From: a virus
IMG/VR virus record: IMGVR_UViG_3300037461_000428
Location: 1-64,000 of that record
Direction: 5' to 3' (one strand)
Length of the DNA stretch: 64,000 nt
Below are positions 5,635-61,548 of this stretch, piece by piece. Made by a program: the position numbers and the translations under genes. The notes beneath the pieces are model-generated. The model saw nothing but the letters and a program-made list of their open reading frames with translations. It ran no database searches and was not told where the DNA came from. Every line of letters begins with the position of its first letter. The first letter of the stretch is position 1.

Positions 5635-5670
5635 TGCGCCGAATTAAAATTAAGGATTGGTGGTTTACAT

Positions 5671-5724: not shown

Positions 5725-5772
5725 AGTCAATTCCGGTTTTGAAAACCTTTTATTATAGGAGCGCGCAAGAAA

Positions 5773-31878: not shown

Positions 31879-31883
31879 TACAC

Positions 31884-31960: not shown

Positions 31961-31976
31961 TTTTAAGGAGAGAATT

Positions 31977-33119
31977 TTGTCAGAAAGAAAATTAGCTCAT
32001 ATTGAATTAATAGAAAAACTGGAACCAATTCCAAATAGTGACTTTCTTGAAAAGGCTACTATACTTGGTTGGGAATGTGTAGTAAAAAAAGATCAGTTTA
32101 AAGTCGGAGAACGAGTTTGTTATATAGAAACCGATAGTATTGTTCCTACTATACCATTCTTTTTCTTTATGGAACCAAGACGTTACCGCGTGAAAATCAT
32201 ACGGTTACGTAAGCAAATTTCACAAGGCCTCGCCATTTCCTTTAGTGACATAGATAAAATATGTAGTGAATTATATAACAATACAATGGGTATTGTTACC
32301 TCTTCCCTAAATATTGGAGAAGATATATCAAAAACGTTACATATTATTAAACATGATCCTCAAGCTAAAGAGGAATTTCTAATAGAAGATAGTAAAAAAG
32401 CTAATCCTATCCATAAGTATTTATTAAAATACAAATGGTATAGAGCTATTCAGCCAAAGAAACAGGGACGATGGCCGAAGTGGATACAAAAAACAGACGA
32501 AGAAAGAATACAAAATATTCCATCTATTCTTATTCATCATGCTGATACCAAAGTTTATTGGTCAGAAAAATTAGATGGAAAAAGTATATCTATCTCATAT
32601 AAGAAGTTAAAAGTATTTGGTATATTTTCAAATTGGATATTTACTGTGTGCTCTAGAAACATCTGGTTGAAGCGGCCTAGCACACAAGACTATTGGAGAA
32701 TAGTTCGACAATTAGATCTTCAAAATAAATTAAAGAACTATAATAGAGAACTAGTTCTTCAAGGAGAACTTTGTGGACCGAGAATACAAAAGAATAAATA
32801 TAATCTTAAAGATATAGATTTATTTATCTTTACTGTTTATGATATAAAACTTGATACCTATTTAGGAATCGAAGGAATTAGAAAAGTTTGTGAAGACCTT
32901 AATTTAAAAATGGTACCAATACTTGGTACAGGAATATTAAAAGAAAACTTTCCCGATGTTCCAAAATGTGTAGAAAAATCAAAAGGAACTTCAATTCTAG
33001 CTAGTGTAAAAAGAGAAGGAATTGTGGTGCGCCAATATAATAACTCAAAAGGAACTAAAGGGCTTTCTTTTAAAGTAATTTCGCCAGAGTTCTTACTTGG
33101 ACTAAGCGAAGATGAATAA
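31977..33119 (+). CDS. RNA ligase (KxDG nucleotidyltransferase, DRB0094/Rnl-like)
   Basis: WSEKLDGKS is adenylation motif I. The N-terminal AHIELIEKLEPIPNSDFLEKATILGWECVVKK resembles the RNA-ligase N-domain. A TTG start after AAGGAGAGAA is assumed because the track ORF 31851 runs through tRNA-His. Confidence 0.65.
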   Translation: MSERKLAHIELIEKLEPIPNSDFLEKATILGWECVVKKDQFKVGERVCYIETDSIVPTIPFFFFMEPRRYRVKIIRLRKQISQGLAISFSDIDKICSELYNNTMGIVTSSLNIGEDISKTLHIIKHDPQAKEEFLIEDSKKANPIHKYLLKYKWYRAIQPKKQGRWPKWIQKTDEERIQNIPSILIHHADTKVYWSEKLDGKSISISYKKLKVFGIFSNWIFTVCSRNIWLKRPSTQDYWRIVRQLDLQNKLKNYNRELVLQGELCGPRIQKNKYNLKDIDLFIFTVYDIKLDTYLGIEGIRKVCEDLNLKMVPILGTGILKENFPDVPKCVEKSKGTSILASVKREGIVVRQYNNSKGTKGLSFKVISPEFLLGLSEDE

Positions 33120-34179: not shown

Positions 34180-34306
34180 TAACGGGTGTAGACAAGAGTT
34201 ACTTCACTGATAATGAAAAGATATGGGTTCGAGTCCCATACCCTTCGTAAGAAGGGACTAGCTCAATGGCTAGAGCGTTAAAATACTCTTATCGTTTTTA
34301 TCGTTA
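34180..34306 (+). ncRNA. Y-RNA-like RNA, copy 5, with a tRNA-like module (YrlA-type)
   Basis: TAACG-GGTGTAG-ACAAGA-GTTACTTC ... ACTCTTATC-GTTTTTATC-GTTA. The interior has ATGGG-TTCGAGT-CCCAT and GCTCAATGGCTAGAGC. Confidence 0.6.
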
Positions 34307-34337: not shown

Positions 34338-35888
34338 ATGAAACAAAATACAAAAGCAACTGGAAATGGAAAAACTGTTCTTACTATTGGTAAAACTTTA
34401 AATAAGGCCGGCGAAGAAGCCTTTGAGCTTAAGGATCGCGAGAAGCTTGTAACAGGCATTTTAACATGCCTAGTCAATGAGCCTACGTATTATGGAGATA
34501 CTACTCCAGATGTCATTAAAGTAGCCCGTAAGCTTATTCAGACAGATCCTGAGTTTGTCGCAAAGGCCGCGTGCTATGCAAGAAACGTTTTTCATATGAG
34601 AAGCATATCTCATGTACTTGCTGCAGAAGTAGCAAAAGGAGCTAAGGGAAGCAATGTTGTCCGTAAGATGACTCGTAAAATAATTGAGCGTGCCGATGAT
34701 ATTACCAATATCCTTTCCTACCACTTTAAGACTTGGGGAAAGAGAAAAAAGGATCCTGCTCTTACTGTAACCCAGTCAGACAATCCTGTATCAAGAGCTC
34801 TCCGTAGAGGAATAGCTGATGTATTCCCAAGATTCGACGAGTATTCTCTTGCTAAGTATAAAGGCGACGACAACGACGTCAAGCTTCGTGACGCCCTATT
34901 ACTTTCCAGACCTAAGCCTACTAATGAAGCACAAACCCAGCTTTGGAAGAAATTAATCGAAGGTAAGCTGGCTACGCCAGAGACCAGAGAAACTATTCTT
35001 TCCGAGAAAGGTCAGTCTAAGGAAACTTGGGAGAAGATCATTGATGGTAAAGCAGGATATATGATGCTTCTAAGAAACCTTAAGAATATTCTGGAAAATA
35101 AGGTTAGTCAGTCTCATCTTGATAAGGTATGTACTATTATTAGTGACACTGATCAGGTAAAGAAGTCAAAACAGTTCCCATTTAGATTCTTCTCTGCTTA
35201 TCGTGAAGTTGAAAATTTGGGATCTTTGAGATCTCAGCAAGTTTTAGATGCTCTTGAAAATGCGCTTAATACGTCATTTGAAAATCTTCCAAAGTTGGCC
35301 GGAACCACTGCAATTATTGTGGATCAATCTGGTAGTATGGATAGTCCTCTTAGCGAAAAAAGTAAAATCAATCTAAGGGACGTTGGCAATCTTCTTGCCG
35401 CAGCGGCATTAAAGTTCTGCGATAGAGCAGTTACTATTCCATTTGGATATACTGCAAAAGTTATATCTTTATCTTCTCGTAATAATATCTTTGCGAATAT
35501 GACAAAGATGGAGAATTCAGGAGTTGGTCATTCGACTTATCTTATTTCAGCATTTGAAGAAATTGATAAGCTGGATGAGAAAATTGATCGCATCCTTATT
35601 TTCTCTGATATGCAGGCATATGGAGAAGTAGCGACCATATTTGGATATTTCAGACGTCCATCGACTCCGTTATATAATAGCTGTCAGGCTTGGTTTGAAG
35701 CCTATAAACAAAAAGTGCCAGCGTTATGGTTACATTCATTTGATTTAGCTGGCCATAGTACTACTAAAGTAGCCGGAAAAGGTGTAAATCTTATCTCTGG
35801 TTGGTCAGAAAAAGTATTTGATTATGTTTCTCAGGTAGAAGAAGGCAGAGCCGGTCTAATCAAAGCAATTGAAGAATACGTAATTTAA
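34338..35888 (+). CDS. rsr: Ro60/TROVE-domain protein with C-terminal vWA domain (Rsr-like)
   Basis: 516 aa, ATG after ATAGGAGGGTGTT. The N-terminal part resembles TROVE (LVNEPTYYGD...FVAKAACYARN..HMR). IIVDQSGSM is the MIDAS motif. It sits immediately after the Y-RNA-like array. Confidence 0.75.
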   Translation: MKQNTKATGNGKTVLTIGKTLNKAGEEAFELKDREKLVTGILTCLVNEPTYYGDTTPDVIKVARKLIQTDPEFVAKAACYARNVFHMRSISHVLAAEVAKGAKGSNVVRKMTRKIIERADDITNILSYHFKTWGKRKKDPALTVTQSDNPVSRALRRGIADVFPRFDEYSLAKYKGDDNDVKLRDALLLSRPKPTNEAQTQLWKKLIEGKLATPETRETILSEKGQSKETWEKIIDGKAGYMMLLRNLKNILENKVSQSHLDKVCTIISDTDQVKKSKQFPFRFFSAYREVENLGSLRSQQVLDALENALNTSFENLPKLAGTTAIIVDQSGSMDSPLSEKSKINLRDVGNLLAAAALKFCDRAVTIPFGYTAKVISLSSRNNIFANMTKMENSGVGHSTYLISAFEEIDKLDEKIDRILIFSDMQAYGEVATIFGYFRRPSTPLYNSCQAWFEAYKQKVPALWLHSFDLAGHSTTKVAGKGVNLISGWSEKVFDYVSQVEEGRAGLIKAIEEYVI

Positions 35889-36810: not shown

Positions 36811-37074
36811 ATGCCTACAACTGAAGGTCGTTGGCCAGTAACTCATCTTACCGAACATAAGGTGATGTTTAATAATTTAATTATACTTTTAGCAGACATC
36901 GATCACGCATTAAATGAAGATGGAACACCTATAGTCTTGCCAAGAACAGAAGCAGGAGTTATAATCTGGAATGAAGTTTCAGTTGCCTTTATTATTCAAT
37001 GGTATATGATGAATGCTCAGAGATTAACACATAATCATAAAGAGAAATTAAATAATAATGTTACACCCAGTTGA
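36811..37074 (+). CDS. hypothetical protein
   Basis: 87-aa ORF, ATG after TAAGGAGGAAAT. Confidence 0.65.
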   Translation: MPTTEGRWPVTHLTEHKVMFNNLIILLADIDHALNEDGTPIVLPRTEAGVIIWNEVSVAFIIQWYMMNAQRLTHNHKEKLNNNVTPS

Positions 37075-37573
37075 ACCAATTAAGATTTATTTGTGCGGAT
37101 ACATAGGCGGACCAGCAGTTATAGATAAATGTATCGAGTGGAGACAGAGAATTGTTGAGAAGTATAATGACTATAAAGGAGACGGTCAACGATATCCTAT
37201 CGTATGGCTAGATCCAATCAATGGTAAAGACTGTAAGTTCATGGATAAACACGGACTAAAGTCTAACGTACCTTCGCATGCTATTATGCATCGAGATTAT
37301 CAGTGTGTAATGCGTGCCGATCTTATCGTAGCTAACATGGATACCTTTGGTCAGGAACGCCCACTCATTGGAAGTGTCTTTGAACTAGCATGGGCATGGG
37401 AACACCATAAGCCTATCATTTTGATCACAGACAATCCAATGTATACAGAACATCCCTTCTTGAGTTATGCTGCGTCACACGTAGTATCCTCAGTAGATGA
37501 TCTTCTAGAGAAGAAAGTAATTAACTATTACTTTAAAGGTTGGAACGATGCAATTTATTATGAGGAGAAATAA
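37058..37573 (+). CDS. nucleoside 2-deoxyribosyltransferase-like protein
   Basis: IYLCGYIGG near the N-terminus and VFELAWAWEHHKPIILI fit the NDT-like family pattern. Confidence 0.45.
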   Translation: MLHPVEPIKIYLCGYIGGPAVIDKCIEWRQRIVEKYNDYKGDGQRYPIVWLDPINGKDCKFMDKHGLKSNVPSHAIMHRDYQCVMRADLIVANMDTFGQERPLIGSVFELAWAWEHHKPIILITDNPMYTEHPFLSYAASHVVSSVDDLLEKKVINYYFKGWNDAIYYEEK

Positions 37574-39624: not shown

Positions 39625-39973
39625 CATAATCTATACTGATATTTGTCTTCCAGAGTTGAAGATAAAGATCAAAGAAAAATTAAAAATGGATATTATGTTA
39701 GGACTAGATCCATCTTTATGGGCTTTATCAGATGCTCTTGGATTAGTAATGGCACCAAGTATAAAACTTGCTGTAGTCAATATTATCAATGAGATAACTG
39801 TTATTGAAATGGGATTATTACACTTTATGTGTAAACCCATTCTAGTAACGGCTCCTAATATAAAAGATTATCCAATTTTAGCAAAAAGAATAATAGATTT
39901 TGCTGTTCCCGAATGTGATCTAAGAAATCCAAGTTCAAATTTTATCGATTGGTATAAGTCATGGGAGAAGTAA
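39617..39973 (+). CDS. hypothetical protein
   Basis: 118-aa ORF in the track. Confidence 0.55.
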   Translation: MNNIIYTDICLPELKIKIKEKLKMDIMLGLDPSLWALSDALGLVMAPSIKLAVVNIINEITVIEMGLLHFMCKPILVTAPNIKDYPILAKRIIDFAVPECDLRNPSSNFIDWYKSWEK

Positions 39974-42033
39974 TGAAAAAAATCTCGCCTGAAGTAAAGT
40001 CCTTCCTCGAATGGTTATCTGCCAACAAAGTAGAGAACCTTTTTTCCGAAGAAACTGTTACTCTAATAAGAAGTAAGACTTCAAAAGCAATAACATTGGA
40101 CAAAGAAGCGCAAATTAGAGCCGACAGATTATTCGCACAACTTCCCACAGGAATTTATGTCTCACCTAAGGAAGTAATAGATTTAATACAATCCTCTGTA
40201 AAGTCTATAATGACGGATTCGTTAAATTATTCTCCCATGACTCTTAATTTTAAAGAGTTTAGTTCATGTAAAGTAATGAAATACTTTCAGGGAAATATAA
40301 TAACTGGAAGAGAAAAAGAAATAGATACTATACTTCTTACTCTTAGTAAGAAAAGTAAACGTGGCTCGATTCTAATTGGAGACCCAGGTACAGGTAAAAC
40401 AGCTATAGTTCAAGCAATTAATGCGAGACTAATTGAGAGAACAGTACCAAAACAGTTAATTGGCTGTTATATTCTTAACATGGATATACCATATATCCTA
40501 AGTAAACATAAAGACGATCCAGTTGGAACTATAATTAATATTCTAGAAAAAGCCAGCGAGTATGATAAGGCTATTCTGTTTATTGATGAAATTCATCAGC
40601 TGCTTGGCCACAGAATGAATGATATTCTTAAACCATATCTTACTGAAAAGATTAGGTTTATTGGTAGTACAACTATTAACGAGTATCATACAATTATAAC
40701 AGAAGACACAGCACTTGAACGAAGATTTACCATTGTTCATGTCCAAGAACCAAATGTTGAAGAATCAACAAAAATGATAATTGGAACCAAGGCTGTGTAT
40801 GAAGAACATCATAAGTGTTCTATTCCAGATGATATATGTAAATATCTTGTAGAAATTGGAAGTAGATTTCTTGGCCATAGAAGAAATCCAGATAAGTCTT
40901 TGGATATTCTAGACATTGCCTGCTCCATTATGTATGAGTCTGAAATTAAAGACATACATGATAAAGAGAATAAGAATGGAGAACATCTACATGATATTGA
41001 CATTAAAAGAAAAGAGTTATCTACTCTAAGAGCGCATCCAGGAAAGAGAGTTCTAACTAACAAATATGTTAATTTGGCAATCGCTTCATTAACTGGAGTT
41101 AGCTATGATGAAATTAGCATGAGTACTAATTATGAAGGAGTTCTTAAAGCTATTAAGGAAGAAGTATTTGGTCAAGATAAGCAACTGACTCAACTTTCAA
41201 ATGTTGTTAATATTTTCAAGTCGACTAAATATGATCGTGTTAGACCAATATCAGTATTGTTAATGGTTGGGCCACCAGGATCAGGAAAAAGAACTTCAGC
41301 GCAGTTAATTGCAAAAAGATTATTCGGAAGTAAAAATTATTTTATTGATTATGATATGAGTGGATTTAAAGATGCATTTGCCATTACAGAACTTAAAGGA
41401 GCTCCACCAGGATACGTAGGATATGCAAAGTCCGGAGGATTGATAAAAGCCGTTCGTAATAATCCTTTATCTGTTGTGTTCTTTAGAGGTATTAATAATG
41501 CTCATGAGACAATTAGAAAGTATCTAGTAGATGGTTGCCGTACTGGTAAGATGACTGACTCCGCTGAAAGAGAAGCGAAGTTAAATAATACCATTATAAT
41601 TTTTTCAATAACTCTTGATACTGATTCTTTTAATAAGCTTATTAAAGGATCAGGAAAATCAATGGGATTTGGAAAAGTTAATGAAGAAGAAGAAAAACTT
41701 CCAAAGAAAGCCTTAACAGATATTGTTGGGCAGGATATTATAAGTATCTGTGATGATATATTGATTTACAATGAACTTAAAGCCGAAGATCTCGAAAAGA
41801 TATATAAGGCAAATTTAGAATCCTATTTAGGAATGTACAACGTGGATGTTGATCGTACAGAGTTACATAAGCTCGTCATGGAGAATTCGAAGAACGGCCA
41901 TGACGTAGTATCAAAATTATCTTCAGAAGTACCAAGACTAGTTTTTAAACAACTTTCATATAAGGAGAAAGAAAATGACAAAGTCAAAGTTCCCAAGATC
42001 AATCGTAAGAATGATCGAAGCAGCACGCAGTAG
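39973..42033 (+). CDS. ClpA/ClpB/ClpC-like double AAA+ ATPase
   Basis: GDPGTGKTAIV with LFIDEIH forms the first module. GPPGSGKRT forms the second. ELKGAPPGYVGY is a Clp signature. ATG after GGGAGAAGTA. Confidence 0.75.
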   Translation: MKKISPEVKSFLEWLSANKVENLFSEETVTLIRSKTSKAITLDKEAQIRADRLFAQLPTGIYVSPKEVIDLIQSSVKSIMTDSLNYSPMTLNFKEFSSCKVMKYFQGNIITGREKEIDTILLTLSKKSKRGSILIGDPGTGKTAIVQAINARLIERTVPKQLIGCYILNMDIPYILSKHKDDPVGTIINILEKASEYDKAILFIDEIHQLLGHRMNDILKPYLTEKIRFIGSTTINEYHTIITEDTALERRFTIVHVQEPNVEESTKMIIGTKAVYEEHHKCSIPDDICKYLVEIGSRFLGHRRNPDKSLDILDIACSIMYESEIKDIHDKENKNGEHLHDIDIKRKELSTLRAHPGKRVLTNKYVNLAIASLTGVSYDEISMSTNYEGVLKAIKEEVFGQDKQLTQLSNVVNIFKSTKYDRVRPISVLLMVGPPGSGKRTSAQLIAKRLFGSKNYFIDYDMSGFKDAFAITELKGAPPGYVGYAKSGGLIKAVRNNPLSVVFFRGINNAHETIRKYLVDGCRTGKMTDSAEREAKLNNTIIIFSITLDTDSFNKLIKGSGKSMGFGKVNEEEEKLPKKALTDIVGQDIISICDDILIYNELKAEDLEKIYKANLESYLGMYNVDVDRTELHKLVMENSKNGHDVVSKLSSEVPRLVFKQLSYKEKENDKVKVPKINRKNDRSSTQ

Positions 42034-44646: not shown

Positions 44647-47466
44647 ATGAGCATTACAAAGGCCGAAGAATCAAGGCTTGCCACCTTTAAACCAGTATTT
44701 GATAGAATCGAATGCGATGCTGGAATTATTTTTGTTGATACTCCAGAAGAAACAAGATTAATTAGAGAAATTTATCGCACATATAAAAGCGACTCTGTCC
44801 AATTCTGGTCAATCGGGCAAGGTTTACATGAAGTAGAACAGAAAAAGCTTTCTGTAAATAAGTTCTATCCTCATAAATTTCCAGCAGTATCTGCTAGAAT
44901 GGGGAAGAATGGCAATTTTGATACAAGAGTCTCTCCATTAAATCTATTCAGTCTTATTGAAGAAGATTGTCGTGACAAGGCTAAGCCTAACGAAGTGCCA
45001 GATAAAAAGCATATTTATGTTTTACGAGATCTTGATAAATTTCTTAAAGATCCTGTATGTCTGCGCAGACTTAAAGATCTAGTATATCTTTGTGCTACTA
45101 CTTGTTCATGTATTATAGTTACCGGTTACGGAATAACAGTTCCTATTGAATTGGAGAAAGATGCTCAGTTTGTTAAACTTAAGTATCCAACTAGAGAAGA
45201 AATAATTGAAGGTATTCTTAAGAATACTAGGGAGCAAATCACAGAGCATAATAAAGTTGTTGCTCCAAAAGATAGAATTGATAACGTGTGGGATGACGTA
45301 GAAGTAGCAAGAGCATGTGGCGGACTAACTGAGGATCAGATCCTCAATACGCTACAATATTCAATGACTGTTCATAATAAGATTGATATCACAAGTATCA
45401 TTGAAGAGAAAAGATCCATCATTAATAAGTCAGATATTTTAGAGTACTGGACATGTACTCAGGGACTTGATGAAGTTGGCGGATTCAAGGCTATTAAAGA
45501 ATGGATCGCTATTCAAAAAACAGTTATGGATCATATCGACAATGCTGCAAAGTTTAAGACCACACCTCCAAAAGCAATCATGCTTCTCGGGGTTCAAGGA
45601 AGTGGTAAAGCACAACCATTATATACTCCCGTTTTAATGGCTGATAAATCATGGAAAAAAATGGAAGATATTGAAGTTGGAGATAAGATATTAACTCCTA
45701 AAGGAAAGGCTTCTACAGTAAAACAAATCTTTAACCATTATGATAAAGATAATTTTATTATAACTTTTAAAGATGGTCGTTCTACAGAATGTTGTAATGA
45801 ACATCTCTGGAAAGTATATAATAAAAACTGGAAAACCCAAAAAGAAGCCAAAGACGGATGGAAAATAATTACTCTAAATAAACTTATTAAATATTCAAAG
45901 TATACATCTGATACAAGAAGATTTTATATTCCATTACCGTCTTTTGAATTTGATACTCAAGAAATAGATCTTCCTTTTGATCCTTACATTATGGGTGTTC
46001 TATTAGGAGATGGTTGTTTTAGAGGTAATGGTGTAATTTTTACTTCTAACGATGAAGAAATTGTTAAAAATGTTGAAAAAAGATTGCTTCCTGGATATAA
46101 AATAACTAAAATAGAATGTGAAGAAAGAACACCAGACTATAGAATATCTCTTATTAATAATGATGGTCATACAAGAAATTTTTACAAAGTTAAATTAGAA
46201 GAACTTGGATATTGGGGTAAATTATCTTGGGAAAAGAATATACCAGAGATTTATCTTAATGGTTCACTAAACCAGAGATTAGAACTATTACGAGGTCTTC
46301 TAGATACAGATGGATATGCTGGAAATAGTATTAGTTATTCTACTACTAGTCCCAACTTAATGCATTCCATGATAAAACTTATTAGATCTGTAGGAGGACA
46401 AGCATTTTCTACAACTAAAATTTCAAAAGTTTCAAAAGAAAGTACACGAGAATTTTTATCTTTTAATATAAACATAAGATATCATAATCCAAAAGATTTA
46501 TTTAATCTAACAAGAAAAAAAGATAAATTATCTGATAATTACCAATATAATGATTTAAAGTTAGAAATAACAGAAATAAGACAAGTTAAGTCAGAAGACA
46601 TGAGATGTTTATTACTAGATGACGAAGAACACCTTTATATAACAAACGACTATATAGTTACTCATAACACTTTTTGTGCTCAAGCACTTGCCCAACATCT
46701 TAAGGTAAGTCTACTTAAGTTTGAAATCGGAAAAGTATTTGCAGGATTGGTTGGAGAATCAGAAAAGAGAATGAGACAGGCTCTAACACTCGCTGACGCC
46801 GTGGGTGGAATCATTGTAATCGATGAATTGGATAAGGGACTATCAGGAGCAGGTTCTTCTGATAAGACTGATGGTGGAACTACAAACAGGGTAATTGGAT
46901 CTCTATTAACTTGGTTAAATGAAGATCATCCTGGATTGTTATTGGTTGCAACAGCAAACGACATCACATCTCTTCGTAATAATCATCCTGAGCTTTTACG
47001 TAAAGGAAGATTCGACGAAATCTGGTTCTCTGACGTTCCAAACGCAGAAGAAAGAGAAGAGATTTATGGAATTCACATTAAGAAGTCTGGAAGAGATCCA
47101 AAGAAGTTTGATCTCAAAAAGCTTGCTGAATATGAGTACATTGATAATGACCACCAGAAGTTTACAGTAACTGGCGCCGAGATCAAAAGTTCCATCGAAG
47201 ATGCAAAAAGAAATAAGTTTGCAAAAGGTGGTGGAAAAGAAATCGAAATTGGCGGGAAAGACGATATTACTACTGAGGACATTTTAGAGTGTCTTAAGAA
47301 GATTAAGCCAATTACGAAAATTGGAAAAGAAAAGATTAATGCAATGCGTAAATGGTCAGAAGACAATGCAACAAATGTTTCAGCAGGAATTCCTAAAGCT
47401 GAAAAGAAAAAAGGAACAAAATCAAAAGTAAATCTTCGTGAAGCTAATGAAGAAATCGAACTTTAA
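44647..47466 (+). CDS. Ycf46-like AAA+ ATPase interrupted by an intein
   Basis: The Walker A motif is split, GVQGSGK | intein | TFCAQALA. Walker B is IVIDELDK. ATAN...ELLRKGRFDE is the second region of homology. Confidence 0.8.
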   Translation: MSITKAEESRLATFKPVFDRIECDAGIIFVDTPEETRLIREIYRTYKSDSVQFWSIGQGLHEVEQKKLSVNKFYPHKFPAVSARMGKNGNFDTRVSPLNLFSLIEEDCRDKAKPNEVPDKKHIYVLRDLDKFLKDPVCLRRLKDLVYLCATTCSCIIVTGYGITVPIELEKDAQFVKLKYPTREEIIEGILKNTREQITEHNKVVAPKDRIDNVWDDVEVARACGGLTEDQILNTLQYSMTVHNKIDITSIIEEKRSIINKSDILEYWTCTQGLDEVGGFKAIKEWIAIQKTVMDHIDNAAKFKTTPPKAIMLLGVQGSGKAQPLYTPVLMADKSWKKMEDIEVGDKILTPKGKASTVKQIFNHYDKDNFIITFKDGRSTECCNEHLWKVYNKNWKTQKEAKDGWKIITLNKLIKYSKYTSDTRRFYIPLPSFEFDTQEIDLPFDPYIMGVLLGDGCFRGNGVIFTSNDEEIVKNVEKRLLPGYKITKIECEERTPDYRISLINNDGHTRNFYKVKLEELGYWGKLSWEKNIPEIYLNGSLNQRLELLRGLLDTDGYAGNSISYSTTSPNLMHSMIKLIRSVGGQAFSTTKISKVSKESTREFLSFNINIRYHNPKDLFNLTRKKDKLSDNYQYNDLKLEITEIRQVKSEDMRCLLLDDEEHLYITNDYIVTHNTFCAQALAQHLKVSLLKFEIGKVFAGLVGESEKRMRQALTLADAVGGIIVIDELDKGLSGAGSSDKTDGGTTNRVIGSLLTWLNEDHPGLLLVATANDITSLRNNHPELLRKGRFDEIWFSDVPNAEEREEIYGIHIKKSGRDPKKFDLKKLAEYEYIDNDHQKFTVTGAEIKSSIEDAKRNKFAKGGGKEIEIGGKDDITTEDILECLKKIKPITKIGKEKINAMRKWSEDNATNVSAGIPKAEKKKGTKSKVNLREANEEIEL
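45610..46668 (+). mobile_element. intein (353 aa) with a LAGLIDADG homing-endonuclease domain, Ala1 type
   Basis: It starts AQPLYTPVLMADK (Ala1, T6, V8, D12) and ends IVTHN followed by Thr+1. LAGLIDADG motifs GVLLGDGC and LLRGLLDTDGY. Removing it restores GSGKT. Confidence 0.75.
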
Positions 47467-54679: not shown

Positions 54680-55267
54680 ATGCTTGATATGTTTTCGATA
54701 GATTTAAATACAGAACAGAGGTTAGATGCTTTAAGAGATGAGTTGGCCAGATATAATAGAAATTCTAAAGTAGATACAAAGAAGGCAAAAATAAAATTAT
54801 TCTACGGAGACGTAAATAATTTTAATGATGGCGTGCTGACCGTTTCGAGCCCACCTAAAGCAAAGTTCTTTGAATCCCCTGATGATAAATTCTTATCCAG
54901 CATTCTAGAATCCATCGAGATAAAGAAGTTCTTTCTTACATATGACTATTTATTTTTTGGCGACAGACCAACTACTCAAACTGTAAAAGATTTTGGATAC
55001 TTTATTCGAAGATTAGTTGATATTATAAACCCAAAACTAATAGTATGTCTAGGAGAAGAACCTCAGTTCTCTTTTTTTAAAAGAAAGTTTTTACTAAGTG
55101 ATTTTCATGGAAAACAAATTGGCGATTACGAAGGTAGACCAATTTATACAACGTATCCAATTAGCTATTACGAAGAAAGATCTCAGTTCGAAGATCATTC
55201 ATATAAAGAAGCAATTAAAAATAAGGATTGGAACGCTATAAGAGATAAATACAAGGAGTTAAAATGA
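54680..55267 (+). CDS. UDG-superfamily-like protein with degenerate catalytic motifs
   Basis: KLIVCLGEEPQ ... FHGKQIGDYEGRPIYTTYPISYY parallels the second half of family-4 UDG. The GEAPG motif and the His of HPS are absent. Confidence 0.35.
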   Translation: MLDMFSIDLNTEQRLDALRDELARYNRNSKVDTKKAKIKLFYGDVNNFNDGVLTVSSPPKAKFFESPDDKFLSSILESIEIKKFFLTYDYLFFGDRPTTQTVKDFGYFIRRLVDIINPKLIVCLGEEPQFSFFKRKFLLSDFHGKQIGDYEGRPIYTTYPISYYEERSQFEDHSYKEAIKNKDWNAIRDKYKELK

Positions 55268-55476
55268 TATCTGATTATAACTGTAAACACTGCGGTAATT
55301 CAGAAAACGACGTATTAATTAAAAACTCAGAAGAAGTTGTGCTATGCAAGATATGCAACGAGCCAATGGAAAGGACATACAGTGTCACAAAATTTACTCC
55401 ATTACGAAAAGGAACTCCTTATCCGACCCACCTTATTGGAGGAGGAAACAGAGCTAGTTTTGGAATCCTTGACTAA
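55264..55476 (+). CDS. small zinc-ribbon protein
   Basis: 70-aa ORF with CKHCG...CKIC pairs. Its ATG overlaps the upstream stop. Confidence 0.55.
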   Translation: MISDYNCKHCGNSENDVLIKNSEEVVLCKICNEPMERTYSVTKFTPLRKGTPYPTHLIGGGNRASFGILD

Positions 55477-55930
55477 AGTCCATTCATTTATAAAAACTAT
55501 TGCAGAATCTACTACTATTATATCTATAACTATTGAACATAGATCTAAAACTATTAAAAATTTAAGAACTAAATTAAATTTAAGAGAATCAAAAGAACCA
55601 GAAAAAAATTATTGGTTAAGAGAAACTTTTACCAATAAAGAGCCATTTACGTCAACAGAAAAATTAGGAACACACGAGGTAAGAGAAGTATCTTTAATTC
55701 TTCCACTTGGGGTATTGATAGATAGAGAAGAACTAGGAAAAATGTCCAATAAAAATTGTTGGATATTTAATAGATACATAGAGATCTTTTCTGTTAGTAA
55801 CATAACTGCAAAAGAAAATATGCTAGAGTATGTGGTATTAAATTCTTCCGGATTAACAAAATACTCTAATAATAATACTCCACTTTTAATTGAGGTATCA
55901 GATGGAATCAGAGGAATTATATCAGTATAA
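55337..55930 (+). CDS. hypothetical protein; start unresolved
   Basis: It is the only open frame across 55480-55930. Its 5' 140 nt overlap 55264-55476 in another frame. Confidence 0.4.
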   Translation: MCYARYATSQWKGHTVSQNLLHYEKELLIRPTLLEEETELVLESLTKVHSFIKTIAESTTIISITIEHRSKTIKNLRTKLNLRESKEPEKNYWLRETFTNKEPFTSTEKLGTHEVREVSLILPLGVLIDREELGKMSNKNCWIFNRYIEIFSVSNITAKENMLEYVVLNSSGLTKYSNNNTPLLIEVSDGIRGIISV

Positions 55931-56555
55931 ACCGATTTATCAATCAGAATATGCTGAGGGAACAAAACAAATAGTATTTTCTGGACACCGCGAAATTCAT
56001 TCAGGTGACGAAGAAACGCAATTTGCAACATGTGTAATATTAGATCACAACGAATATAGAATCCATAATTTTGAATTTAAAGATCCAAAACTACAAGTAA
56101 CTTATAATTTATTCTATGCATTTGGATTAACTATAAATCTATTTCATACAAAAATGTTAGCTGTAGATTTTGATAATAAAGATATTAATAAAGATATAAT
56201 TCCAATTTATGAAAAATTAAAGAAATGCAAAGAGGTCAAAGCTATAGACCTATTAGAATCTAGTAGAATTAATGGTAATTATCATATGATACTAGGATTC
56301 GATAGGTTTTATGATGTAAGAGGACTACCAGGATTTATTCCCAAATCTTGTATAGGGCATGCAATCTTTTGTACAAATAGAAGAGAACAGACTATAAGAG
56401 TATCACAAAAGTTTATGCTAAACCAATACCAAGATACTAGTATTATTCCTTTAATTAGTTGGAATCAAGATCTTAATCAAGAATTAAGAAATTTTCCGAG
56501 TAGACCAAAAAAAATAATAAATACGCCAAGAAAATTAAACTTAAGGACATCATGA
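55890..56555 (+). CDS. hypothetical protein, possible AEP-type primase-polymerase core
   Basis: LAVDFDNKD is a DxD motif and INGNYHMILGF is an sG.YH-type motif, at AEP-like spacing. Weak inference. Confidence 0.5.
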   Translation: MRYQMESEELYQYKPIYQSEYAEGTKQIVFSGHREIHSGDEETQFATCVILDHNEYRIHNFEFKDPKLQVTYNLFYAFGLTINLFHTKMLAVDFDNKDINKDIIPIYEKLKKCKEVKAIDLLESSRINGNYHMILGFDRFYDVRGLPGFIPKSCIGHAIFCTNRREQTIRVSQKFMLNQYQDTSIIPLISWNQDLNQELRNFPSRPKKIINTPRKLNLRTS

Positions 56556-56558: not shown

Positions 56559-56957
56559 ATGGCAACAACATGTGCTTCAAGAAAACAAAAAGGTAGAAGA
56601 CTTGCCCAGAGAGTAGCTGGATTTATTAGACAAGTATTTAATTTAAGTGAAGACGATGTATATAATACACCTGGAGGTGTTCCTGGTGAAGATATTAAAC
56701 TATCAGAAAAAGCAAGAAAGCTTTTCGGTTTTTCAATAGAATGCAAAAATGTAGAGAAACTTAATATTTGGGAGGCACTTGAACAAGCAGAGAGTTCGAA
56801 TAGAAAATATAAACCATTAGTAATATTTTCTCGTAATAGATCAGAAGATTTTTGTGCCCTTAAATTTTCTGATTTTATGCTTCTTATGGAACAAATTAAA
56901 CTATTAACTGATGAAGTAAATTTTTTACATGAAGAAAAAGCAGGAATAAGTATATGA
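56559..56957 (+). CDS. PD-(D/E)xK-type nuclease (resolvase-like)
   Basis: GVPGEDIKL....FGFSIECKN gives a D...E.K core. The size (132 aa) fits small phage nucleases. Confidence 0.5.
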   Translation: MATTCASRKQKGRRLAQRVAGFIRQVFNLSEDDVYNTPGGVPGEDIKLSEKARKLFGFSIECKNVEKLNIWEALEQAESSNRKYKPLVIFSRNRSEDFCALKFSDFMLLMEQIKLLTDEVNFLHEEKAGISI

Positions 56958-57292
56958 AAGACGCTGTTAGCAGATCAATAAGAGTTGGAGACTATTGTGT
57001 TGGATCTTGGAAGTCTGCTTTAGTATATTGTTATGTAGTAAGACTTACAAAAAAAAGAATATTTACAACAAAAGGACGATGGGATCCAAAGCAAATATTG
57101 GTTATTAATGATGTACCAATAGAACGCAGAAAACATTTTACTGTATGGCAAGAAGAAAAATATGGAAATTTACCAGTAAATACTGACCAACTACTAATGG
57201 AATGGGAAGTTAAAGAGGAGATTAAAAATGATAAAGACGAAAATAATAGGAAATGGGGGAATTGGCAGTTACTTAGCCCACCACCTAGATAA
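56954..57292 (+). CDS. hypothetical protein
   Basis: 112-aa ORF that overlaps the next gene by 65 nt. Confidence 0.5.
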   Translation: MKDAVSRSIRVGDYCVGSWKSALVYCYVVRLTKKRIFTTKGRWDPKQILVINDVPIERRKHFTVWQEEKYGNLPVNTDQLLMEWEVKEEIKNDKDENNRKWGNWQLLSPPPR

Positions 57293-57800
57293 ACTTATCG
57301 AACTAAAGCAAATTAAAGATATGGATTTTACATTCTATGACGACGATAAAGTAGAATTAAAAAATATTTTATATCAGAATTTTGAAACATCTGATATAGA
57401 TTCTTATAAAACACAAGCTCTATCTTTAAAATATTTCAATTTAAATTTTGAATGCAAAAGATTATCATTAGAAGATCTAGCAGACTGCGAGTTAGTTGTA
57501 TTATGCGCAGATAATAATCTTATTAGAGAACAGGCATTAGAAAATTGGAACACTAATAAGATCCCATTTATAGATAGTAGAGCAAATGGTCGAGCGATTG
57601 GTATATTTTCAAGCGACACAGTAAATTATGATAAAACTTTATCAAAAGATACTAAGTCGTCTTCTTGTCAGAATCCATTTCAAATTGCTAAGAAAGAAAT
57701 TGAGTATGGTAATGTAGTGATAGCCGCGATATTAGCTCAGGTAATTTTAAACTATAGCAGATACAAAAAACTTCCAATAGATTTTACTACGATGCTATGA
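57228..57800 (+). CDS. minimal ThiF/MoeB/E1-like adenylyltransferase
   Basis: KIIGNGGIGSYLAHHL is a GxGxxG motif. FYDDDKVELKNILYQNF parallels D.D.V..SNL.RQ. ELVVLCADNNLIR and IPFIDSRANGRAIGIF continue the ThiF-fold pattern. ATG after AAAGAGGAGATTAAAA. Confidence 0.7.
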   Translation: MIKTKIIGNGGIGSYLAHHLDKLIELKQIKDMDFTFYDDDKVELKNILYQNFETSDIDSYKTQALSLKYFNLNFECKRLSLEDLADCELVVLCADNNLIREQALENWNTNKIPFIDSRANGRAIGIFSSDTVNYDKTLSKDTKSSSCQNPFQIAKKEIEYGNVVIAAILAQVILNYSRYKKLPIDFTTML

Positions 57801-58042
57801 AACCAATTAAGTTAGACGATAATGTACAAGTACCTAGTTTATGCAAACATTGCCAACATCTAGAGTATTGTTCAAATAATATAGATTCAAAACAATGTAA
57901 TAATCTTATAGGAAAATCATATAGAAGGTACCTATCTCAAAAAGATATACAAGAAATACTATCCGATACAAGTAATGGAAGATTAGAATTAGATATGGAT
58001 CCAATTCGTAAAAAATATAATATAAATTTAAGGAGAGATTAA
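57797..58042 (+). CDS. small Cys-containing protein
   Basis: 81-aa ORF whose ATG overlaps the upstream stop. CKHCQHLEYC...C cluster. Confidence 0.55.
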   Translation: MKPIKLDDNVQVPSLCKHCQHLEYCSNNIDSKQCNNLIGKSYRRYLSQKDIQEILSDTSNGRLELDMDPIRKKYNINLRRD

Positions 58043-60456
58043 TGAAGACAAAATCAGAACATCAACAAATACATGGCGTAATTAATGTAATTGATTCGCT
58101 ATTAGACTTTAAATTAAACTCTCAAGAGTTTATGTCTAATGAAAAAATTGTATTACAAATTGGAGAAACAATTGATAGACTCAACGCAGTTGAGTATGGA
58201 CATAGTCTTCTATCAATTACAAAAGGAAAGACTAGGAATCTACTTTTAATAACAAAAAATAATAATTGGTTTCATATTTATAAATGGATAATAGAAGAAT
58301 CAATTGAGAAGGTAGTTGGAGTAGAAATCCACGAAGAAAATCACTCAGCAGATCTTCATACTTTTCTTGAAAAACTCGAGGCAAGTAATCAAATTAGAAC
58401 AGATGAACTAATGTCTGCACTTGTTGTTCCTACTATAAATGGATTTAATACAAACAAAAAGGCAGCAACTGATTTTGTTAATTTAAAAAATAAAGACGAA
58501 AGAAAAGGTCCTTCACCAAAAGAAGAGGCAATTGCATATAGAAAAGAAAACGAAGGTCTAATATCTTTTGGAAGAAAAGTCTTATCAAAAATAGCTCATA
58601 TTAAAAGCGAACTTAAAAAGACAATTGAAACAGCAGTACAAAAATTTGAAATAAAAGAATTGGAACTGACTCAAGAGTTTAATAATTTAAAGAAAGATAA
58701 GATATTCTTAGGAGAGATAACCGATGTAAAAGAAATTGGTGGCCGCCGACACTTTGAAATTAAATGGGTATCAGTAGCGCAGTCTAATAATAATTTAAGA
58801 TACGGAAGATTAACACACGCATGCTCATCAGGAGTAGAATCAGTATCAATAATTAATTCAAATGATCTTTATATATATATAAAAAGAGATTACGATTATG
58901 ATAATGCTGAATTTAATGTAGAAAACTTAGAATATATTCCATATAATCTAGTAGATAAAGGAAGATTAATAGCTGCTATTAAGGATACAGATAGTGAATG
59001 GAAAATTTTAATTAGCCAAGATCCAAGAGTAGATGCAGAATTTTCTAAAAAGTTTGAAAAAGGAATTATTGAATATATTAATGAAAGAATCGAATTAGGA
59101 CATTCGATTCTTGGAACAGAAATTAAAGTACCATCTTTAAAAGCAGTTATTCCATACGATGCATATGAACATAATCAGAGAAAATTAAACGAAAATCTTT
59201 CTGGAATTCGATTAAAACTTAAATCTTTAAAGGTAATGGTTGATGAACATAACTACATAGTAAAGAAAAATAGTTCTATCGGAGAAGACGTTACAGTAAC
59301 CGATAGTATTAAGTTTAATCATCAAGAAGGTAAGATAGCTTATAATGATTTTAGTATAGCAATACCAGATGAATATGTTAAAGCAAAGCTATATAATTTA
59401 TTTAATAGTTACTTAATGAAATATTATCGTTCTGAAGCCACTGAGCAAGATATTCTAGACAGTCTTATAACAGATGTATTTACTGCAATATCTGAGAGAT
59501 TAAATAATAGTACAAAAACAGATCTTGAACTCCCAATTAGAATTAATGATAATATTAATATAATTGTAACCGGTAAGATATCAAAAAGATATGCTAAGAA
59601 TAAAGAAGGAGAGAAGACCGATACCGTAGCATCAACCGGTCAGCTCTTTTATATAAACGATCAAAGGTTTAATAAGAACGAAGTCCTAATGGTACTTAGA
59701 GAGATGACTTGTTATAGAAGTCAAGAGGAAGCTGATGCATTTATTAATAATATTGGTCGACTTAGTCTATCTTCATATATTGGAATTACGACTGGTTATG
59801 AAATCAATTTCAATACAGATAGCAGAAGTAGTTCTAAAGGAGAACCACAGAATAGATTGTTTAGATTTAAAAAGATAAAGGGAGGAAGATCAAACTTCCA
59901 ACTAATATTAGACGATACAAGTATTCCTATAAAGGGAAAGAAACTAATCAATATTCTTTATGAAAATTTTATTGGCGAAAGAGTTCCAGATTTCTTAGGA
60001 AAGATACCAAACTTTATATATGAGTGTAGTGGTTCATCACTTCAGTATTTAAAATATAGAGTATTAATAGACGAATCTTATAAAGCATTTAAAGATAAGT
60101 CTATTGAGTATCTTAATAAGAAAGTTAAAGAGCTGGGCGCTTCACACGCTAAATATTTTAATAAGAAGGCTAGAAAAATTATGGATGCTATTCTATTAAA
60201 AGGTGCGTCTGGAAAGACATATATAATTGCTTATGATTCAAAAGATTCATTTGTATTTATGGATCCACAGTTAAATGAAACAGAAGAACCTTCTGAAATA
60301 AAACAATATAAAGAAGGCAAGTACATATGCATGATTGATCAGAGCAATATTAAATCTAATATTAGTCATGATACTATTGTATCAAAATTAATGGCATTAA
60401 AGAACGATAGCAGTATTGCACATACAATTTACAATTTACAAGAGGAGCTAGAATAA
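58042..60456 (+). CDS. large hypothetical protein (804 aa)
   Basis: The ATG overlaps the upstream stop. No motif recognised by eye. Confidence 0.7.
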   Translation: MKTKSEHQQIHGVINVIDSLLDFKLNSQEFMSNEKIVLQIGETIDRLNAVEYGHSLLSITKGKTRNLLLITKNNNWFHIYKWIIEESIEKVVGVEIHEENHSADLHTFLEKLEASNQIRTDELMSALVVPTINGFNTNKKAATDFVNLKNKDERKGPSPKEEAIAYRKENEGLISFGRKVLSKIAHIKSELKKTIETAVQKFEIKELELTQEFNNLKKDKIFLGEITDVKEIGGRRHFEIKWVSVAQSNNNLRYGRLTHACSSGVESVSIINSNDLYIYIKRDYDYDNAEFNVENLEYIPYNLVDKGRLIAAIKDTDSEWKILISQDPRVDAEFSKKFEKGIIEYINERIELGHSILGTEIKVPSLKAVIPYDAYEHNQRKLNENLSGIRLKLKSLKVMVDEHNYIVKKNSSIGEDVTVTDSIKFNHQEGKIAYNDFSIAIPDEYVKAKLYNLFNSYLMKYYRSEATEQDILDSLITDVFTAISERLNNSTKTDLELPIRINDNINIIVTGKISKRYAKNKEGEKTDTVASTGQLFYINDQRFNKNEVLMVLREMTCYRSQEEADAFINNIGRLSLSSYIGITTGYEINFNTDSRSSSKGEPQNRLFRFKKIKGGRSNFQLILDDTSIPIKGKKLINILYENFIGERVPDFLGKIPNFIYECSGSSLQYLKYRVLIDESYKAFKDKSIEYLNKKVKELGASHAKYFNKKARKIMDAILLKGASGKTYIIAYDSKDSFVFMDPQLNETEEPSEIKQYKEGKYICMIDQSNIKSNISHDTIVSKLMALKNDSSIAHTIYNLQEELE

Positions 60457-60668
60457 TGGCTAACGTTGCAATTGAAAGAACATTAGACAGCGGGTACGAA
60501 GATAAAGAGTATCCACTAGAAGAGGCACTTCCTATTCTCAATAACGAATTGGAAAATGGAAGATCAATTTGGATTGATAATAAACTATTCTCTGATGGAA
60601 TAGTACAAGAAACAGATTTAGTAAAATGCAAAAAGGTTTGTGTAACCAATAGACTGATAGGTGGATAA
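60456..60668 (+). CDS. ThiS/MoaD-like ubiquitin-fold protein ending in Gly-Gly
   Basis: 70 aa. The C-terminal segment ...SIWIDNKLFSDGIVQETDLVKCKKVCVTNRLIGG-stop parallels the ThiS/MoaD pattern (.vNg......L.dgD.v.i....GG). Translationally coupled on both sides. Confidence 0.6.
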   Translation: MANVAIERTLDSGYEDKEYPLEEALPILNNELENGRSIWIDNKLFSDGIVQETDLVKCKKVCVTNRLIGG

Positions 60669-61228
60669 TGAATACAGCCATAAATACCTCAATTAATAAT
60701 CTTGCTAATCCAAGATTAGCAAGAAGTACATTCAAATCACAAGTTGAAAACTCTGCGATAATAAAAGAATTGTATGATGGTATTGTAAATGGTGAATCCG
60801 AAGACTATAAAACACTAAACCTTCTTTGCAAACAAACAGTGGATAATGGATATCGAATTATTCTATCTGATTTATTACCTATACCCTTTGTATTTAAATT
60901 CAAAGGAAAAAGTATTAAATCTCTTTATGAATATGAAGACGTCCATATCCAATCTTCTATTATTAAAACTTTGCTTTTAGATGGCGATGGAGACCTAGAC
61001 TCCAGAGTTAATAGAGCAATATACATATTATATAACTATTGGTTCTTTCATAAGAATAATATTAGTGATATTACTCTTAACGTTTGCGTCGATATAGAGA
61101 ATATCATATCGATTATAATAGATAAAAGTCTTACTATCTATAGAGAATATACAATAACAGGTGAGATAGTAGATAAACTAAGAGAAAAGTTAGTTAACGA
61201 AAAGCTTTTGAACATGGGAGACGTATGA
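60668..61228 (+). CDS. hypothetical protein
   Basis: 186-aa ORF whose ATG overlaps the upstream stop. Confidence 0.6.
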   Translation: MNTAINTSINNLANPRLARSTFKSQVENSAIIKELYDGIVNGESEDYKTLNLLCKQTVDNGYRIILSDLLPIPFVFKFKGKSIKSLYEYEDVHIQSSIIKTLLLDGDGDLDSRVNRAIYILYNYWFFHKNNISDITLNVCVDIENIISIIIDKSLTIYREYTITGEIVDKLREKLVNEKLLNMGDV

Positions 61229-61548
61229 TATTATTTGTTAGTAATGGAAAATTAACTAACGAGCTTTGTAAATTAACTTGGCACGACTTTGAATTCTTAA
61301 CAGGAGTAAAAGTTAATTTAACAAAACGAATCGCACGACAAGTAAGAGTTCTAAGAATTAAAGGACATACTTTTTTATCTGAGGCAACCTTCCTACAAGG
61401 ATGTAAATACGCTAAGTTAGATAGGCCTTCAAATATTTTAGAGTGCGTATATGTGTCTAATGAAGAAGTTATATTAAAAGATATAAAAGAAGATATGCGT
61501 ATTTTACACGTTACAAATAATGCAACAGATTATAGGATAATAGAATGA
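61225..61548 (+). CDS. hypothetical protein
   Basis: 107-aa ORF whose ATG overlaps the upstream stop. Confidence 0.6.
   Translation: MILFVSNGKLTNELCKLTWHDFEFLTGVKVNLTKRIARQVRVLRIKGHTFLSEATFLQGCKYAKLDRPSNILECVYVSNEEVILKDIKEDMRILHVTNNATDYRIIE

Follow-up and report, generated by a model that had tools for sequence, protein, structure and literature searches.

Here we describe a three-gene module in a 64,000-nt stretch of DNA, given as one strand, of the uncultivated virus record IMGVR_UViG_3300037461_000428 (hereafter, the window). The module lies at 57228-60668 and consists of genes for an E1-like protein of only 190 amino acids (aa), for a protein of 804 aa and for a ubiquitin-like protein of 70 aa ending in Gly-Gly (GG). 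We call these proteins mini-E1, BIG and Ubl, respectively. An earlier reading of the same sequence (the original prediction) had recognized the first and the last of them as an E1/Ubl pair. This identification was supported by the family assignment of the one, by the predicted fold of the other and by the co-conservation of their genes. The finding is larger than that pair: it is a virus-restricted three-gene module with a novel, cysteine-bearing partner. The module could be read as a virus-encoded cascade for ubiquitin-like conjugation, and this reading is weighed against its alternatives below.

Conservation of the three genes in viruses

The conserved unit is mini-E1, BIG and Ubl together. 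We found the trio in about 65 loci with two gene orders, and conservation on this scale excludes a chance arrangement. The loci fall into clades, of which clade A includes the window. The order E1-BIG-Ubl-p186-p107-PolB, where p186 and p107 are two small proteins and PolB is a family B DNA polymerase, was seen in the clade A loci L001, L002 and L003/L004. Three others (L044, L045 and L049), compared as far as p107, keep E1-BIG-Ubl-p186-p107. Loci L052-L058 and two contigs from metagenome-assembled genomes (MAGs), L068 and L069, have E1-BIG-Ubl, plus p186 and p107 where the contig reaches them. Of the 18 clade A loci that extend far enough, 17 have E1 immediately before BIG; in the exception, L061, the BIG open reading frame (ORF) runs off the contig and was unlisted. 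Ubl follows BIG wherever the 3′ end of BIG is present.

For clade B, 38 IMG/VR loci were retrieved solely by a motif in the conserved C-terminal part of BIG (BIG-C), [VI][NSA]R[LIM][FYL]ALxND. Downstream of BIG, at a distance of about 0.2-2 kb, every one of the 38 had a mini-E1 gene (E 1e-23 to 1e-45), and a GG-ending Ubl, encoded by a small ORF with the ending (T/A)N-x-L-x-GG, adjoined BIG. The Ubl proteins of clades A and B were homologous to each other (hhalign probability 94.9%, E 4e-8). The gene context in clade B was RecU, dUTPase, class II ribonucleotide reductase (RNR), a 121-144-aa protein, BIG, Ubl, a JAB protein, E1, a sigma-70 factor and PolA. In each of these clades the module belongs to a block of replication genes. 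PolB lies directly downstream of it in clade A, and in clade B PolA follows a few genes later. The E1 and 70-aa genes, whose linkage was central to the original prediction, are strictly co-conserved in both clades, and the neighbourhood that it proposed to look for in other phages recurs in many uncultivated viruses.

Clade C is represented by two loci (L046 5593-8519 and L047 1526-3927), which are probably from archaeal viruses. They have a BIG of 391-422 aa that keeps the ALxND motif, a TFIIB-type zinc-ribbon protein and a mini-E1, beside RNR. Small ORFs ending in GGV or GGI were observed nearby.

All carriers of BIG are viral contigs or phage-like MAG contigs. Among 185,579 species genomes, BIG was found on two MAG contigs only, both phage-like and 135-197 kb long. 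No BIG was found in cultured phages when the window BIG and a clade B BIG were used in tblastn searches of 50,697 GenBank phage records, and neither blastn of the locus nor tblastn of the window E1 against the same records gave anything relevant. E1 queries from clades B and C reached crAss-like phages and some jumbo phages, whose loci were without BIG and Ubl.

The E1-like enzyme

Mini-E1 is encoded at 57228-57800 (+ strand) and is a ThiF/MoeB/E1-family adenylation domain. The motifs on which the original prediction had relied, GNGGIGS, DDDKVELKNILYQ and CADNNLIR, are all in its translation. It matched the Pfam ThiF family (PF00899) over residues 5-176 with 36.9 bits (gathering cutoff 28.1) and E 2.8e-9. 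A profile of 36 mini-E1 sequences matched ThiF, MccB, UBA5, a 'THIF-type' protein and Cap2 in the PDB at E 7e-4 to 5e-3; the PDB match of the single sequence was weak (E 0.7).

The small size, already noted in the original prediction, is a property of the family. The 120 homologues listed are mostly 188-196 aa long, with a few shorter or longer, and begin just before the Gly loop. A 159-aa gene call of the identical protein, P0001, leaves out the Gly loop. To our knowledge, at about 190 aa this is the smallest E1-like enzyme of its kind.

Twelve residues were invariant in 41 of 41 distinct mini-E1 sequences from the three clades: G8, G10, G11, D38, D40, N46, K61, D95, R100, D116, R118 and C147. 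Among them are residues of the nucleotide loop, the acidic residue that binds ribose, the conserved Lys and the catalytic motif D-N-x3-R, so that the Gly loop, Lys61 and Asp95-x4-Arg100 expected of a ThiF-family protein are all present. In the window, the Gly loop is encoded from 57249, Asp95 at 57510-57512 and Cys147 at 57666-57668. Cys147 aligned with Cys184 in the crossover loop of Escherichia coli ThiF (MAFFT --add; the ThiF sequence used was verified over residues 55-153). In ThiF, Cys184 is the acyl-disulfide cysteine. The CxxC zinc motifs of bacterial ThiF/MoeB were absent from the alignment of the 41 sequences.

The best NCBIfam match of mini-E1 was the PRTRC ThiF model TIGR03736 (E 2.2e-8), with 33.7 bits against a cutoff of 144.75, and the ThiF/MoeB equivalog models scored it 5-20 times below their cutoffs. 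Because these matches are so far below the cutoffs, mini-E1 belongs to no named subfamily.

The ubiquitin-like protein

The Ubl gene (60456-60668, + strand) encodes 70 aa. As the original prediction had read it, the protein ends in RLIGG followed by a stop; in full the end is TNRLIGG-TAA. The codons of Gly69-Gly70 are at 60660-60665 and are followed directly by TAA, leaving a free C-terminal GG. Of the close homologues, 13 of 14 end in TN(R/K)LIGG. Over all loci, each of the 46 distinct Ubl sequences has the GG; in 41 it is the very end of the protein, and in the other five 1-3 residues follow it.

The AlphaFold2 model of Ubl (predicted local distance difference test, pLDDT, 87.6; predicted TM-score, pTM, 0.74) has the order beta-beta-alpha-beta-beta-(short helix)-beta, with strands at residues 3-10, 13-20, 37-40, 43-45 and 60-64, helices at 21-33 and 52-55, and a free tail thereafter. 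When this model was compared with the PDB by Foldseek, the best 50 matches were all to ubiquitin-like domains, ubiquitin itself, ISG15 and SUMO among them. The highest probability was 1.00, with E only about 2.5e-3 and TM-scores of 0.4-0.5. Both methods thus predict the beta-grasp fold that the original prediction required of the 70-aa protein. No match to Ubl was found in Pfam, PHROG, PADLOC, NCBIfam or a PDB profile search, and it matched no curated Ubl/ThiS/MoaD family.

BIG and its conserved C-terminal domain

BIG (58042-60456, + strand) is the third core component of the module and no bystander. In the original prediction it was an 804-aa protein with no recognizable motif. It is indeed without a match in the libraries searched, as detailed below, and is at the same time a conserved core component with an invariant cysteine.

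There were 12 close homologues, and a profile search of 1.84 billion representative proteins gave 141 clusters. About 48 of these relatives are full-length; in about 90 others, 620-1400 aa long, the match is confined to profile positions of about 510-790. The N-terminal part, about 500 residues in the window protein, is clade-specific, and the N-terminal halves are unrelated between clades. Conservation is in the C-terminal 270-300 residues or so, BIG-C (59539-60453, + strand), which was examined over 115 sequences. Cys763 (codon 60328-60330), Ala785 and Asp789 (60406-60408) were invariant in all 115. Gly721, Asn539, Tyr727, Gly585, Asn788 and Cys557 (59710-59712) were nearly so, the last being present in 112 of 115.

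The AlphaFold2 model of BIG had a mean pLDDT of 72. In this model, residues 666-803 form a long helix, four strands, a short strand with Cys763 and two helices. Such an order of elements is compatible with the UBC fold, though pLDDT is below 50 near Cys763 (at 762-775, and again at 790-804). We propose that BIG-C is a Ubl-accepting or ligase domain.

A JAB/JAMM peptidase in the sister clade

In 36 of the 38 clade B loci, a gene for a protein with a JAMM motif lies between the Ubl and E1 genes. Of five representatives compared with Pfam, all matched Prok-JAB (E 1e-12 to 3e-4) and three exceeded its gathering score. A hidden Markov model (HMM) made from 21 of the clade B proteins found no JAB in the 64-kb window or in any clade A locus. 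The original prediction had likewise seen no E2-like or JAB-like motif in the window by eye, and BIG, p186 and p107 gave no significant E2 match in Pfam or by hhalign.

The Ubl proteins with residues after GG (GGQ, GGC, GGN, GGNAN and GGTH) came only from loci with JAB. Among distinct sequences, five of 20 from JAB loci and none of 26 others were extended (Fisher p = 0.011, uncorrected for relatedness and short contigs). This pattern fits a JAB that trims Ubl precursors down to GG. The persistence of JAB in loci whose Ubl already stops at GG, and so needs no trimming, suggests that it also acts in deconjugation.

A proposed conjugation cascade and its alternatives

We propose that the module is a virus-encoded ubiquitin-like conjugation cascade in which E1 adenylates the GG end and Ubl passes by way of E1 Cys147 to BIG Cys763; we would put this at close to, though slightly under, an even chance. 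What backs it directly is the family and catalytic residues of E1, the fold and GG end of Ubl, the three-way linkage, the cysteine of BIG and the association with JAB in clade B. We infer all of the chemical steps and the nature of the targets. As its family membership implies, mini-E1 would bind ATP and adenylate the Gly-Gly carboxylate (Gly70) of Ubl. The activated Ubl would be captured as a thioester on Cys147, at the crossover-loop position of ThiF Cys184, and then handed on to Cys763 in BIG-C. The clade-specific N-terminal half of BIG would select the target, making BIG a combined E2/E3. In the sister clade, JAB would trim those Ubl precursors that have residues after GG and would probably reverse the conjugation as well; clade A would have lost the neighbouring JAB and make its Ubl ready to use. 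The targets would most likely be proteins of replication, recombination or host takeover expressed at the same time, because the module sits in the replication block in both clades. In support of conjugation, Pfam detected no rhodanese, cysteine desulfurase, PP-loop protein or thiazole/molybdopterin synthase among the neighbours scanned in the window and clade B.

Several observations weigh against this proposal. The Arg of the N-L-x-R-Q motif is replaced by Tyr49 in the window mini-E1 and by Tyr or His in other clades. The protein starts only seven residues before the Gly loop, therefore it has no N-terminal helix and no Arg finger. At the other end, the chain stops about 43 residues past Cys147 (E. 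coli ThiF continues for about 67 past Cys184), and the C-terminal Ubl-binding (Ubl-clamp) domain is missing. With these three elements lacking, the catalytic competence of mini-E1 is not assured.

The proposal is weakest in the ligase role that it gives to BIG. The window protein and 10 distant relatives had no match in Pfam, PHROG, PADLOC or NCBIfam, and PDB profile searches with BIG alignments came back empty. Foldseek with the model of the 804-aa protein found nothing in the PDB and BFVD, with no E2 among the best 50. Around Cys763 the model itself is of low confidence (pLDDT below 50). When 131 BIG-C sequences were compared by hhalign with seven eukaryotic E2s, the probability was 0.15% and E was 0.39, and BIG-C as an E2 was rejected. 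That alignment was collinear and placed Cys on Cys; because it has no statistical support, we do not file BIG as a member of the E2s or E3s. In addition, the evidence consists of sequence and prediction, and trios of E1, JAB and Ubl are found also in sulfur pathways, namely CysO/Mec+ and QbsCDE (PMC1779556, Iyer et al. 2006).

A bolder form of the proposal takes the lack of relatives at face value. BIG-C would then be a new class of cysteine-dependent Ubl transferase, unrelated in sequence to E2, HECT and RBR, and the module a viral ubiquitination system complete in itself, conserved in large bacteriophages and in what are probably archaeal viruses, that would tag replication or host proteins during infection. 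We think this possible but, on balance, rather doubtful.

In one alternative, Ubl is a sulfur carrier. E1 would adenylate Ubl, a host persulfide donor would convert it into a C-terminal thiocarboxylate through an acyl-disulfide on E1 Cys147, as with ThiF and ThiS, and BIG, using Cys557 and Cys763, would put the sulfur into a nucleotide, a DNA base, tRNA or a cofactor. JAB would process the carrier or release the adduct, as QbsD and Mec+ do. The alignment of Cys147 with ThiF Cys184, the presence of ThiS adenylyltransferase ThiF models among the best NCBIfam matches and the sulfur-pathway trios cited above (PMC1779556) all speak for it. A position among genes of replication and nucleotide metabolism (clade B has dUTPase and RNR, the window a gene for a nucleoside deoxyribosyltransferase-like protein) would suit modification of DNA or nucleotides. 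To the sulfur enzymes already listed as absent from the scanned neighbours, however, radical-SAM proteins and sulfur-insertion enzymes must be added, although the donors could be encoded by the host. Moreover, BIG is unlike any such enzyme in Pfam and in PDB profiles, JAB is kept where Ubl needs no trimming, and a variable N-terminal half would be unusual if BIG were a biosynthetic enzyme acting on one fixed small molecule. We therefore consider sulfur transfer unlikely.

It is also improbable, in our judgement, that conjugation proceeds without any E2-like step, with mini-E1 alone modifying lysines as in the archaeal SAMP/UbaA system. SAMP systems run on E1, Ubl and JAMM alone. BIG would be the main substrate or a scaffold, for example one supplying in trans the Ubl-binding domain missing from mini-E1, and its cysteines would be structural. 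Such an arrangement could explain why BIG gives no E2 signal in fold or sequence and why mini-E1 has no C-terminal Ubl-clamp domain. It could also explain why model confidence is very low just where BIG is most conserved, as for a segment that folds on a partner. Nevertheless, a Cys conserved in 115 of 115 sequences beside an invariant Asp and an Asn looks more like part of a catalytic site than of a scaffold. Nor would one expect a protein that is only a substrate to accompany E1 across divergent viruses as BIG does, in 38 of 38 distant loci and in 17 of the 18 clade A loci that are long enough.

A role like that of MccB or PaaA seems very unlikely. Here E1 would adenylate the C-terminus of Ubl to make a peptidyl-nucleotide, or would join it to an amine on a small molecule or DNA, and BIG would tailor or transfer the product. 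MccB was among the best PDB profile matches (E 1e-3), and the module is embedded in DNA-metabolism genes. That match, however, covers the generic Rossmann N-terminus only, and the JAB association points to processing of Ubl. The substrates of MccB-type enzymes, moreover, are short peptides ending in Asn, not in GG, and not folded beta-grasp proteins. Finally, the idea that a generic Rossmann protein happens to stand near an unrelated small ORF ending in GG, for which one might cite the weak single-sequence PDB match and the lack of a Pfam match to Ubl, is refuted by the Pfam ThiF score, the trio in about 65 loci, the GG in 46 of 46 sequences and the confident beta-grasp model. The roles listed in the original prediction (protein tagging, counter-defence and nucleic-acid thiolation) still cover the live hypotheses.

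Comparison with known systems

The bacterial ubiquitin-like conjugation systems Bil, Bub and CBASS Cap2/Cap3 act in antiphage defence (PMC11601596). Our module resembles them in having an E1-like enzyme, a beta-grasp Ubl with a GG end and, in the sister clade, a JAB/JAMM protein in one operon. The only matches of mini-E1 in the defence library were the PADLOC Cap2 'E1-E2' models, which were partial, N-terminal and at E 1e-5 or weaker. It differs from these systems in being viral instead of residing in bacterial defence islands, in having no E2 recognizable by PADLOC, Pfam or hhalign, in its E1 of only about 190 aa, and in its obligatory partner, a protein of 620-1400 aa whose C-terminal Cys domain is novel. 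Clade A, furthermore, lacks JAB (within 64 kb in the case of the window). A full defence gene set of E1, E2, Ubl and deubiquitinase was not found with PADLOC models.

The archaeal SAMP/UbaA/HvJAMM1 system and Urm1/Uba4 also combine E1, a Ubl with GG and JAMM, and do without E2 and E3. Because they can take part in conjugation as well as in sulfur transfer, the same ambiguity applies to this module. UbaA is about 270 aa long, with zinc-binding and C-terminal domains, and the NCBIfam UbaA model scores mini-E1 far below its cutoff. SAMP systems have no BIG-like partner. The present module also differs in being viral and part of a replication gene cluster.

With the sulfur-carrier pathways (ThiF/ThiS, MoeB/MoaD, CysO-MoeZ-Mec+ and QbsC/D/E) the module shares the adenylation core of Gly loop, Lys and Asp-x4-Arg, the Cys at the position of ThiF Cys184 and a beta-grasp carrier ending in GG. 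QbsD trims residues of QbsE beyond GG (PMC1779556, Iyer 2006), as we propose for JAB. Mini-E1 differs in lacking CxxC zinc motifs and in the Tyr or His in place of the N-L-x-R-Q Arg, as does the locus in having no rhodanese, desulfurase or synthase among the scanned neighbours.

The nearest relative of the module in a cultured phage is the gene pair gp76/gp77 of the crAss-like Bacteroides phage crAss001 (L070, NC_049977.1 81394-83792). The C-terminal 190 aa of gp76, annotated as 'thiamine biosynthesis protein ThiF', matched the mini-E1 profile at E 1e-19, conserved Cys included; gp76 differs from mini-E1 by an N-terminal extension of 170 aa. Its neighbour gp77, annotated as 'metalloprotease', has the JAMM motif HSHx7SGTD and matched Prok-JAB at E 5e-4. 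The pair is in a replication module, beside a primase, a uracil-DNA glycosylase (UDG), a Holliday-junction resolvase and RNR, and neither the BIG-C nor the Ubl profile had a match at this locus. The literature that we searched contained no paper on the BIG module or on the crAss001 pair, although much of the literature on crAss-like phages may be beyond that search.

The ThiF protein of PRTRC (ParB-related, ThiF-related cassette; TIGR03736) is, like mini-E1, an E1-like protein of mobile elements. The score of 33.7 bits against 144.75 shows that mini-E1 is not a PRTRC member, and no ParB or other PRTRC gene is nearby.

In HECT ligases, the N-terminus varies, the C-terminal 270-350 aa or so form a conserved domain, and the Cys is about 30-40 residues from the C-terminus. 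BIG resembles HECT and HECT-like (SopA/NleL) proteins in this architecture only: it has a variable N-terminus, a conserved C-terminal domain and a Cys about 30-40 residues from its end. PDB profiles and Foldseek gave no sequence or fold similarity between BIG and HECT.

Gene organization and neighbouring genes

The window has about 30% G+C, and its large ORFs are all on one strand. A protein identical to BIG is encoded on a metagenomic contig of 213,094 bp; the source is thus an uncultivated jumbo phage of about 213 kb. Its bacterial-type RecA and ClpC-like genes point to a bacterial host.

From 56.5 to 64 kb there is a single run of + strand genes with starts and stops overlapping by 1 or 4 nt, in the order PDDEXK/RusA-like resolvase, p112, mini-E1, p81, BIG, Ubl, p186, p107 and PolB. 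The ORFs named in the original prediction were all found where it had put them. Its claim of translational coupling over 56954-61548 also agreed with our analysis, since neighbouring genes from 56954 up to PolB, which starts at 61545, overlap by 1 or 4 nt throughout, with the sole exception of the 65-nt overlap of p112 and E1. A promoter and terminator scan detected no terminator-like sites on the + strand inside the run, and promoter-like sites were as frequent as in shuffled sequence.

The resolvase gene (56559-56957, +) was assigned by Pfam PDDEXK_15 and PHROG 244. The next gene, p112 (56954-57292, +; 112 aa), overlaps the E1 start at 57228 with its last 65 nt. Among the related loci, a homologue was found in L049 only, and L001 has none; for this reason we regard p112 as an accessory or recently acquired gene outside the conserved module.

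Between E1 and BIG, the window has an insertion, p81 (57797-58042, +), that encodes an 81-aa protein with a Cys cluster. The original prediction had included this protein in the run. It is indeed present at 57797, and is outside the conserved unit: jackhmmer found no homologue in 67 related loci, and there was no match in Pfam, PHROG, PADLOC or NCBIfam. In L001, E1 and BIG are 12 nt apart with no intervening gene. As a gene unique to the window genome, p81 was rejected as a component of the module.

The two further proteins that the original prediction had listed as unknown, p186 and p107, are co-conserved throughout clade A. The first (60668-61228, +; 186 aa) always follows Ubl in clade A (21 loci) and has invariant Ser97, Tyr122, Tyr158 and Glu178 and a nearly invariant His93. 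The second (61225-61548, +; 107 aa) is always between p186 and PolB in clade A (18 loci), with invariant Tyr62 and Cys74 (codon 61444-61446; 16 of 16 for Cys74). Neither had a PDB or Pfam match. We considered whether one of them might be a hidden JAB or E2; hhalign, PDB and Pfam were all negative. By hhalign, p186 was unrelated to clade B neighbours and p107 gave no match with BIG-C.

PolB, the DNA polymerase that the original prediction had placed next to the module, starts at 61545 (+) and continues past the window end at 64000. It was identified by Pfam DNA_pol_B_exo1 (E 1.5e-16), is translationally coupled to p107 and has the same position in L001, L002 and L003.

Upstream of the run are genes for RecA, a UvrD-type helicase and a UDG-like protein. 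Another upstream gene, p221 (55890-56555, +), has DFD and GNYH motifs recalling archaeo-eukaryotic primases, with no Pfam match; its conservation extends to 15 loci, where it likewise precedes the module. A 70-aa zinc-ribbon protein (55264-55476, +) has a conserved PTHL(I/L)GGG near its C-terminus that recalls the RLIGG tail of Ubl; the likeness is probably coincidental. Its counterpart in L001 is at 5660-5884, and the L002 gene at the same position matches Pfam Zn_ribbon_8.

Other features of the window and related genomes

Two ATPases in the window are of the unfoldase type. A 939-aa AAA+ ATPase (44647-47466, +) had its best PDB matches with VAT, Cdc48 and p97 (E 1e-20) and carries an intein (Hint plus LAGLIDADG) inside the Walker A loop. 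Cdc48-type unfoldases act with ubiquitin-like tags in eukaryotes and archaea. The other (39961-42033, +) is a 690-aa two-ring Hsp100 unfoldase similar to ClpC/ClpB (E 8e-67), an unusual cargo for a phage. Inteins were also seen in PolB of a 437-kb relative (L003 12026-15445; LAGLIDADG/Hom_end, 1139 aa) and in the class II RNR of a clade B phage (L010 1221-4118; Intein_splicing plus LAGLIDADG).

A Ro60/TROVE protein is encoded at 34338-35888 (+; Pfam E 2e-33), and a weak tRNA-like element (34180-34248; Rfam tRNA 31.1 bits; ARAGORN tRNA-Ile) directly precedes it. This element could be a YrlA-type Y RNA. With an RNA ligase encoded nearby at 31851-33119, the Ro60 gene and the tRNA-like element may form an RNA-repair module.

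Other genes of the window encode a vWA-domain protein (26393-27103), an N6/N4 DNA methyltransferase (27532-28227), an ATP-dependent DNA ligase (28240-29367) and the nucleoside 2-deoxyribosyltransferase-like protein mentioned above (37058-37573). Five tRNA genes are dispersed over 20.4-34.3 kb.

Significance

In the literature that we searched, no phage-encoded E1/Ubl/JAB conjugation machinery was described. The module reported here is compact, strictly co-inherited and virus-only, with at least 141 clusters of BIG proteins. Its partner protein brings a conserved cysteine domain without detectable kin among known ligases. The site in the replication block, close upstream of the DNA polymerase, holds for either polymerase family, PolB or PolA.

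What the module would mean for these viruses depends on its chemistry. A sulfur relay would imply a novel thio-modification of phage nucleic acid. If BIG-C is a new class of transferase, the module would be a viral counterpart of the bacterial ubiquitin-like defences Bil, Bub and CBASS. If it carries out conjugation, it would be a minimal model of transfer from E1 to ligase, possibly with a new ligase fold, and would raise the question of what phages tag during infection: the replisome, host defences or their own proteins.

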